IMG/VR virus record: IMGVR_UViG_2778261350_000002 | Length of the DNA: 7,316 nt | Origin: a virus | Taxonomy: Duplodnaviria > Heunggongvirae > Uroviricota > Caudoviricetes | Direction: 5' to 3' (one strand) | Shown: in pieces, positions 2,972 through 3,988 of the stretch | How positions within the stretch are numbered: the first letter of the stretch is position 1 | Layout of the letters: each line of letters begins with the position of its first letter | Translations under genes and position numbers: made by a program | Notes under the pieces: model-generated | What the model was told of the DNA's origin: nothing | Database searches by the model: none | What the model saw: only the letters and a program-made list of their open reading frames with translations

Positions 2972-3052
2972 AAAGAAATCAAAACAGTGAAGCCCCAACT
3001 GCTGGAACAGTCAGGGCTTCGGTTGTCGGTAAATCCGTGGAGAAAAACCAAC
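2972..3052 (-). ncRNA. Candidate sar-like antisense RNA covering the ant ribosome-binding site
   Basis: On the minus strand there is an extended -10 TGcTATACT (reverse complement of 3059-3067) inside the first ant codons. About 60 nt downstream is a hairpin (7-bp stem 2989-2995/3014-3020, inner 4-bp stem 2998-3001/3008-3011, hexaloop), followed on the minus strand by ACUGUUUUGAUUUCUUUG. The predicted ~80-nt transcript is antisense to the ant SD (GGAG 3039-3042). P22 has a 68-69 nt sar RNA with this arrangement. Ends are approximate. Confidence 0.3.
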
Positions 3053-3988
3053 ATGAATAGTATAGCAATTTTAGAAGCAGTGAACACCTCTTACGTACCT
3101 TTCAATGGTCAGCAGATTATCACCGCCATGGCTGCCGGAGTTGCATATGTTGCGATGAAGCCAATCGTTGAAAACCTCGGAATGAGCTGGGGTACTCAGC
3201 AACAAAAACTTATGAAACAACTAGATAAGTTCAACTGTATTCATATGAATATGGTTGCCGCTGATGGGAAGCTTCGTAAGCTACTCTGCCTTCCTTTGAA
3301 GAAGTTAAATGGATGGCTGTTCAGCATCAACCCTGAGAAAGTTCGTGCTGACATCCGCGATAAACTGATTCAGTACCAGGAAGAATGCTTTACTGTGCTG
3401 CATGACTACTGGACTAAAGGCCATGTAGTTAACCCACGCAAAGCTAAAAAGGCGTTGCCGGGTAAAATAACCACTGAACAGCAGGAAGCCATTAAACAAC
3501 TCGTCATGAGTCGCGGTCAGTCTCTGCCAAAAGAAAAACAGGCGAAGGCGATGATCACCATGTGGTCGTCACTGAAATCCCATTTTGGATGTTCGTACAA
3601 AGAAATCAGTGAGGAGCAGTTTACCGAAGCACTGTCACTTGCAGCTCGAGTTCCACTTGAAGGTGAGTTCATCGGCAAACAAGAGAAGAAAGCAAACGAG
3701 CTTTCTGCAAAAGAAGCAAACAGCCTTGTATGGTTATGGGATTATGCCAACCGCTCACAGGCATTATTCCGCGAACTGTATCCGGCATTAAAACAAATTC
3801 AATCGAACTATTCCGGGAGATGCTACGACTACGGTCATGAGTTCTCGTATGTTATCGTAATGGCGAGAGACGTTTTAATCAATCACACACGAGATGTTGA
3901 TATTAATGAGCCAGATGGACCAACGAATCTTTCCGCATGGATGAGACTTAAGAATAAAGAATTACCTCCTTCAGTACATAACTACTGA
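3053..3988 (+). CDS. ant: Antirepressor (Ant-like), 311 aa
   Basis: Track ORF 2987..3988. It follows arc on the same strand as in the P22 immI region. Preferred start is ATG 3053 ([10 protein letters not shown]...) with GGAG at 3039-3042; the track start at 2987 is a GTG with no SD. Stop TGA 3986-3988. The Ant assignment rests on synteny with arc/mnt and size; the sequence-level match was not verified. Confidence 0.7.

Follow-up and report, generated by a model that had tools for sequence, protein, structure and literature searches.

The window, by which we mean the whole stretch of 7,316 nucleotides analyzed here, carries a complete immI region composed of mnt, a Pant-like site, arc and ant, with Pfam support for all three genes. 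The mnt-like repressor gene (87 aa; 2317..2580, minus strand) matches an Arc-like RHH family at 3.3e-10, and is 96% identical in DNA to the mnt gene annotated in CUS-3. On the plus strand lie an arc-like repressor gene (46 aa; 2680..2820; Pfam Arc PF03869, 2.9e-9), annotated as 'Arc family DNA-binding protein' in E. coli genomes, a small gene of 57 codons taken from the list of open reading frames (2817..2990), hereafter ORF57, and the antirepressor gene ant (311 aa; 3053..3988), which matches Pfam P22_AR_N (1e-44) and P22_AR_C (2e-28) as well as PHROG 245, anti-repressor Ant. The latter gene contains an imperfect 18-nt tandem duplication (3636-3670; two copies, 83% match). A consensus scan located a probable Pant (TTGACT, 17 bp, TACTAT) at 2621..2649 on the plus strand, in the position occupied by Pant in P22 and epsilon34, from which arc, ORF57 and ant would be transcribed. 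Candidate operators for Mnt and Arc, unlike those of P22, are present in the Pant/Pmnt region (2603-2667): an inverted repeat whose arms, each of 18 nt, lie at 2607-2624 and 2628-2645; a pair of 21-nt direct repeats at 2614-2655; and the palindrome TGTATG..CATACA at 2649-2667.

Beyond ant is the tailspike gene (4089-7034), with P22-type head-binding and endosialidase N-terminal, beta-propeller, beta-barrel and tail-spike domains and a C-terminal S74 chaperone, a domain set that indicates a phage specific for the K1 capsule. It is followed, at 7188-7250, by ATGTC and eight copies of AAGACTC, the heptanucleotide VNTR that marks the start of neuO, which encodes a phase-variable polysialic acid O-acetyltransferase in CUS-3-type prophages (PMC3046976); eight is not a multiple of three, which would put neuO in its 'off' phase if the count is real. 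The last segment (7251-7316) is an A-rich low-complexity run, poly-A with interspersed C, and E. coli genome matches stop at 7250; instead of coding for neuO, this run may be an artefact of assembly or of the contig end. The nearest DNA relatives of the window are Lederbergvirus phages (phiv205-1, CUS-3, epsilon34 and P22) and E. coli prophages, and as none of the complete E. coli genomes matches 80% or more of its length, the window is best described as a mosaic.

The original prediction had placed a possible sar-like antisense RNA opposite the start of ant. An Rfam scan of the whole window returned a sole match, RF00262 (sar RNA), at 3052->2986 on the minus strand, covering positions 1-68 of the 68 of the model, with a score of 83.9 bits (almost two-fold the gathering score of 43) and E = 4.4e-17; no other Rfam family and no tRNA was detected in the window. 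With a covariance model of our own construction the score reached 92.3 bits. When the ant ATGs of the P22 RefSeq entry and of the window are superimposed, the P22 sar RNA (15021-15090) falls on window positions 2984-3052, its terminator (15021-15058) on 2984-3020 and its promoter (15097-15125) on 3059-3087, and the sar RNA, terminator and promoter annotated in epsilon34 agree with this mapping. Aligned with P22 (X01916) and epsilon34, the window is nearly identical to them over the stretch that extends from the terminator to about codon 20 of ant. The predicted sar RNA occupies 2984..3052 on the minus strand and measures 67-72 nt, its 5' end at G3052 and its 3' end within 2981-2986 being projected from the P22 annotation. 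It is about 93% identical to the P22 RNA, from which it differs by four substitutions (A16C in loop I, U25C, and two bases in loop II) and by the deletion of a single A in the tail, which is richer in U in the window than in P22. None of these differences breaks a pair, and U25C converts the G4-U25 pair of P22 into G4-C25, which strengthens hairpin I. The sar sequence of the window is found unchanged in phage phiv205-1 and in E. coli LI60C3.

The 69-nt RNA folds into two hairpins with a minimum free energy of -32.4 kcal/mol (z = -5.3), a value equalled by none of 200 shuffled sequences. Hairpin I (nt 1-28; 3025..3052, minus strand) has in this fold a 6-bp stem and a 16-nt loop that holds the anti-SD sequence CUCC (3042..3039). 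Hairpin II, an intrinsic terminator recognized both by a terminator scan and in the Rfam alignment, lies at 2989..3020 on the minus strand; its stem of 14 bp, three of them G-U, carries the loop UCCA and, starting at a distance of 33 nt from the predicted +1 (G3052), reaches as far as nt 64. The minus-strand hairpin and U-rich tract that had been read downstream of the -10 are thus present, as a stem running from 3020 to 2989 and followed by the tail ACUGUUUUGAUUUCUUU (2972..2988, nt 65-81), which is evident from the sequence and from the terminator scan and coincides in part with the end of ORF57, namely its final codons and its TGA stop (2988-2990). Hairpin II is 6 kcal/mol stabler on the minus than on the plus strand. 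In every one of 60 variants, the sar strand exceeds its complement in stability by about 10 kcal/mol; the complement in the window folds at -22.4 kcal/mol. The asymmetry stems from the three G-U pairs of hairpin II, which become A-C mismatches in the ant mRNA. The scan detected no plus-strand terminator at hairpin II, the U tract following the stem on the minus strand only, and we rejected hairpin II as a plus-strand terminator: that strand has a mismatched helix and is devoid of a U tract.

The promoter of the RNA, Psar, was mapped from the promoter features of P22 RefSeq and epsilon34 to 3059-3087 on the minus strand, within ant codons 3-12. It consists of a -35 hexamer GTGTTC (3082..3087; GTGTTA in P22), a 17-bp spacer, and an extended -10, TGcTATACT or TGCTATACT (3059..3067). 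An extended -10 inside ant had been predicted to span codons 2-5; the motif itself stands, at 3067..3059, but it covers codons 3-5 (AGT ATA GCA, Ser-Ile-Ala), since the ant ATG is at 3053-3055. In the alignment the extended -10 is identical in the window, P22 and epsilon34, and the -35 shows one difference between the window and P22. The hexamer GTGTTC agrees with the consensus at two of six positions, one fewer than in P22; it is the commonest -35 variant and is common to epsilon34. The predicted +1, G3052, lies one base ahead of the ant ATG. Chance would give 0.2 occurrences of the motif TGNTATACT in the window, which has two. The second extended -10-like site, TGATATACT (1365..1357, minus strand), is within an open reading frame at 1131-1676; neither a hairpin nor an Rfam match was found beside it (1357-1365), so it is probably fortuitous.

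Translation of ant starts at 3053, not 3054, behind a Shine-Dalgarno sequence GGAG (3039..3042) situated 10 nt 5' of the ATG, the same place as the RBS annotated in P22 X01916 (RBS 586-589, ant ATG at 600). An in-frame GTG at 2987 was considered as a start and rejected in view of this Shine-Dalgarno sequence and of the conserved ATG at 3053, which is the annotated start in all relatives. Complementarity of the sar RNA to the ant leader would be perfect between position -1 and the stop codon of the preceding open reading frame, and the predicted complementarity to the ant Shine-Dalgarno sequence holds: GGAG at 3039-3042 faces CUCC at sar nt 11-14. The window element combines the covariance score of the family with two stem-loops, an antisense position over the ant Shine-Dalgarno sequence, the Psar motif and the immI context. 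The RF00262 score, the base-level alignment to the P22 and epsilon34 features, and the position abutting the ant ATG inside an intact mnt-arc-ant immI support the view, on sequence grounds, that this region is a true homologue of P22 sar. The element is highly probably the sar gene of an immI region of P22-like (Lederbergvirus) type, carried by an E. coli K1 prophage that resembles CUS-3; the RF00262 match, the mapping of the P22 and epsilon34 features and the immI context all argue for the sar-like RNA of the original prediction. The element would be one already known, a member of a well-characterized family with its own Rfam model.

How the window sar is likely to act can be read from its P22 counterpart, and we infer the transcript ends, the translational block and the biological role from work on that phage. 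A sigma-70 promoter, Psar, embedded in ant codons 3-12 and made of a weak -35, a 17-bp spacer and an extended -10, would fire leftward from G3052. Transcription would be stopped by the hairpin II terminator (3020..2989 plus the U tract), giving a two-hairpin RNA of about 68-72 nt that would expose its anti-SD CUCC (nt 11-14) in the 16-nt loop of hairpin I. By pairing with the arc-ORF57-ant mRNA, whether produced from Pant or by read-through of the late operon, sar would cover the ant Shine-Dalgarno sequence, block 30S binding and so repress synthesis of the antirepressor, beside the Arc and Mnt protein repressors; for the window sar, repression of Ant synthesis is what its perfect complementarity to the leader would predict. 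The P22 sar RNA, of 68/69 nt, pairs at the RBS of the ant mRNA, blocks its translation and limits antirepressor synthesis together with Arc and Mnt (PMC12197685, PMC7968456, PMC2629481), and has been detected during P22 infection by small-RNA sequencing (PMC13397905).

The distance between arc (stop at 2820) and ant (ATG at 3053) amounts to 232 nt, against 68 nt in P22 (X01916: arc ends at 531 and ant starts at 600) and in epsilon34. The gap had been noted as larger than that of P22, which it is, and a different organization had been suspected; an extra open reading frame (2817-2990) is indeed inserted between arc and sar, but the sar-ant unit is unchanged. The length of the gap is accounted for by ORF57, not by a different sar. 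Homology to P22 starts at window position 2988, exactly at the sar 3' end, and the P22-type spacing, with no gene between arc and sar, is not found in the window, a departure that leaves membership of the sar family unaffected. The GTG start of ORF57 overlaps the arc stop (GTGA) and is preceded by a Shine-Dalgarno sequence GAGGGGA (2803-2809), while its TGA stop overlaps the base of the terminator stem. The product matches phrog_17642 (unknown function) at 1e-41 and gave no match in Pfam, NCBIfam or PADLOC; it has close homologues only, with three DNA variants, and its AlphaFold model, of low confidence (pLDDT 56), shows three short helices. The annotations of phiv205-1 and E. coli LI60C3 list ORF57 as a CDS. 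In E. coli A2 (locus L006, 1721-1819) and in L033, the sequence between two short repeats, GCTTGGATGC and GCTTGATGCG, has undergone an in-frame deletion of 135 nt that leaves 12 codons of ORF57 and an arc-ant gap of 97 nt, with sar intact; the presence of this deletion in some E. coli prophages shows ORF57 to be dispensable.

The promoter motif, the strand bias and both hairpins, with compensatory changes, are conserved in about 200 related phage loci, which were gathered in two ways. A first set was obtained by scanning viral contigs with the hairpin II sequence and comprises 123 loci with an ant-type open reading frame 62-66 nt downstream; they yield 60 distinct sar sequences, among which conservation of hairpin II is partly built in, as it was searched by its own sequence. 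The set includes 19 different Ant N-termini, yet 121 of its 123 loci have TGnTAnnnT facing ant nt 7-15, and all keep a rare ATA-type codon arrangement; every promoter type has an nTGnnn -35 at 17-bp spacing. The hairpin-to-ATG distance is 64 nt in the window, as in most relatives. A second set of 80 loci was collected through the Ant C-terminal domain, without reference to sar. The canonical hairpin lies 64-65 nt ahead of the ATG in 62 of these, and TGCTAnnCT is kept in 74; about 11 loci have a different terminator hairpin and are still recognized by our covariance model. Outside the set found by pattern search, hairpin II is thus not invariant: a terminator of the AAAGCCCAAGCTATTGCGAGTAGCTCGGGCTT type occurs about 70 nt 5' of ant in L131, L142, L155 and some eight others, and one locus of the second set (L166) has a hairpin II with compensatory changes.

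Hairpin I was examined by ViennaRNA folding and by covariance-model alignment, as a plain MAFFT alignment of its variants put the 3' strands out of register, and was excluded from the pair counts, and a simple ungapped helix finder mis-paired some hairpin I types. All 33 distinct 5' segments from relatives fold into a hairpin that begins at nt 1 and carries the anti-SD in its upper part. In the covariance-model alignment of 67 distinct sequences, which is fitted to the structure and made of mutually related, partly redundant loci, 98.5% of cells are paired, and changes on both sides are seen in 14 of 20 pairs, including all six pairs of hairpin I; none of 500 shuffles reached the observed values, and slid registers were paired at 33-43%.

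One related locus, L005 (E. coli NCCP15648, an O104:H4-type prophage; 1887-2832), encodes an Ant with the same C-terminal domain and a different N-terminal part, the latter apparently Bro-like as judged by eye. Its DNA homology with the window stops just past the -10 of Psar, and its hairpin I is replaced by a different sequence in which pairing is retained. The end of homology near the Psar -10, the swapped Ant N-terminus and the replaced hairpin I suggest that recombination joints flank the sar module.

These comparisons bear on what else the locus might be. Its location within coding sequence, and the second TGATATACT at 1365..1357, would suit a -10-like motif that reflects the Ant N-terminal peptide and is accompanied by an ordinary terminator of leftward read-through. 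Such a coincidence is scarcely conceivable, given the Rfam E-value of 4e-17, a hairpin-to-ATG distance fixed at 62-66 nt, the covariation of hairpin I, and a motif that persists while neighbouring codons and whole Ant N-terminal domains are swapped, for example with the Bro-type MKSIAKAQ; the comparative data appear effectively to refute it. That the structure functions on the plus strand, as a processing site, attenuator or translational operator of the ant mRNA, the minus-strand promoter-like motif being incidental, is a subtler proposal: the complement also folds (-22.4 kcal/mol), and since a cis-antisense pair conserves both strands, conservation alone cannot discriminate. The strands are nevertheless unequal, the minus one being about 10 kcal/mol stabler in each of the 60 variants. 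On the plus strand, where the scan found no terminator, A-C mismatches take the place of the G-U pairs of hairpin II, and the U-rich tail follows the stem on the minus strand only; TGnTAnnnT is moreover kept opposite codons 3-5 across unrelated Ant N-termini, and the minus-strand RNA was observed experimentally in P22 (PMC13397905). We regard a purely plus-strand unit as very improbable, though the structure of the ant mRNA leader may contribute.

A sar homologue could also be a relic, with a dead promoter or a wholly dead immI circuit that yields no regulatory RNA. The -35 of the window is one base further from consensus than that of P22, many P22-like 'ant morons' are in flux and some degraded (PMC2629481), and the prophage from which the window derives is a mosaic that none of the complete E. 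coli genomes matches over its full length. Against decay stand mnt, arc and ant, intact open reading frames with full-length domain matches, and the extended -10, spacer and both hairpins, equally intact; the substitutions leave every pair standing, and one of them strengthens hairpin I. This sar and promoter sequence also recurs in numerous independent phage contigs, as well as in the functional phage epsilon34. We therefore judge an inactive relic to be unlikely, and retain the reading of the element as a P22-type sar gene.

With that reading retained, the window RNA can be set beside known systems. Sar was among the first antisense RNAs to be characterized, the P22 RNA reportedly by Liao et al. 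1987, Wu et al. 1987 and Schaefer & McClure 1997. The sar RNA of P22 (RF00262) belongs to the same length class and likewise lies directly against the ant ATG, antisense to the RBS of ant; it shares with the window sar both the two-hairpin architecture and the extended -10 TGCTATACT in ant codons 3-5. Its 3' end abuts arc, whereas that of the window sar abuts the stop codon of ORF57; the window also differs from P22 by its 46-aa arc allele and its host, E. coli. The sar of epsilon34, annotated as misc_RNA (EU570103), has the -35 GTGTTC and the loop I C16 in common with the window, but, unlike the window, epsilon34 has no open reading frame between arc and sar. Phage phiv205-1 and E. coli LI60C3 have identical, unannotated sar copies accompanied by ORF57 as in the window, and the arc allele of phiv205-1 differs from that of the window.

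More distant parallels exist among other small RNAs. The c4 RNA of P1 and P7 is processed from its target's own transcript and acts in trans on partially complementary sites, rather than as a convergent cis-antisense RNA, and lambda OOP acts through RNase III cleavage rather than by masking an RBS. Like sar, c4 is a small phage RNA that blocks translation of an ant mRNA through loop pairing around the RBS (PMC12197685); it is not homologous to sar. IS10 RNA-OUT and lambda OOP are, as is sar, short hairpin-bearing cis-antisense RNAs with a promoter inside or next to the target gene, and RNA-OUT likewise occludes the RBS of its target (PMC7968456). Both are unrelated to sar in sequence, and OOP, unlike sar, is directed at the 3' end of cII.

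The position held by ORF57 is occupied in variable ways in the family. By our count, 49 of 110 related loci have a small non-Arc open reading frame, from at least seven unrelated families, that ends at the sar terminator, and in 56 of 110 it is arc itself that ends there. The open reading frames of the arc-sar interval include CxxC zinc-ribbon proteins, a ClpX-zinc-finger-like protein and an 89-aa putative membrane protein, and varied examples are seen in CUS-3 (L007, 2780-3186), L014, L034, L035, L049, L051, L060, L071 and others. CUS-3 has been reported as apparently without arc in the epsilon34 paper; its 'bsq2 boundary sequence' (CP000711) contains an unannotated 46-aa arc-like open reading frame (approximately 2846-2986), a CxxC zinc-ribbon ORF67 (2983-3186) and a sar RNA (Rfam, 84.6 bits). 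In both slots that were read at base level, ORF57 and CUS-3 ORF67, the start of the open reading frame overlaps the arc stop.

A joint reading, which we offer tentatively and think more doubtful than otherwise, is that the interval from arc to the sar terminator is a dedicated cargo slot of immI and that the hairpin I types are sar specificity classes. Each open reading frame ends at or next to hairpin II, which, with the 3' end of arc, would then serve as a recombination anchor. The cargo, which may function in anti-defence or superinfection, would be expressed from Pant together with ant. At least ten hairpin I types co-vary with the ant leader and could, by analogy with P1/P7 c4 heteroimmunity, be specificity classes of a trans-acting sar. 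This proposal bears on the neighbourhood and on the sar family as a whole, not on the window sar.

As a discovery the window sar has small value, for the RNA has an Rfam family, is annotated in P22 and epsilon34, and is present as an identical, unannotated copy in sequenced E. coli phages and genomes. Its value is rather one of annotation: the window merits a sar misc_RNA, Psar and terminator features, an ant start at 3053, and ORF57. Modestly useful for the study of immI shuffling are the Psar motif kept across swapped ant N-termini, the covariation of hairpin I, and the variable slot for small open reading frames between arc and sar.

Two related loci, L035 (4240-4345) and L111 (8340-8440), also have another ant-like gene (MNIVAKS...) and, opposite its start, a further sar-like unit, which has diverged. 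In this unit TGCTACAAT and ATTCAT or ATTCAC (the complement of the gene start) are accompanied by a 5' hairpin, by a GC-rich hairpin of a different sequence and by a U tract; the unit matches the covariance model weakly, at about 26 bits.
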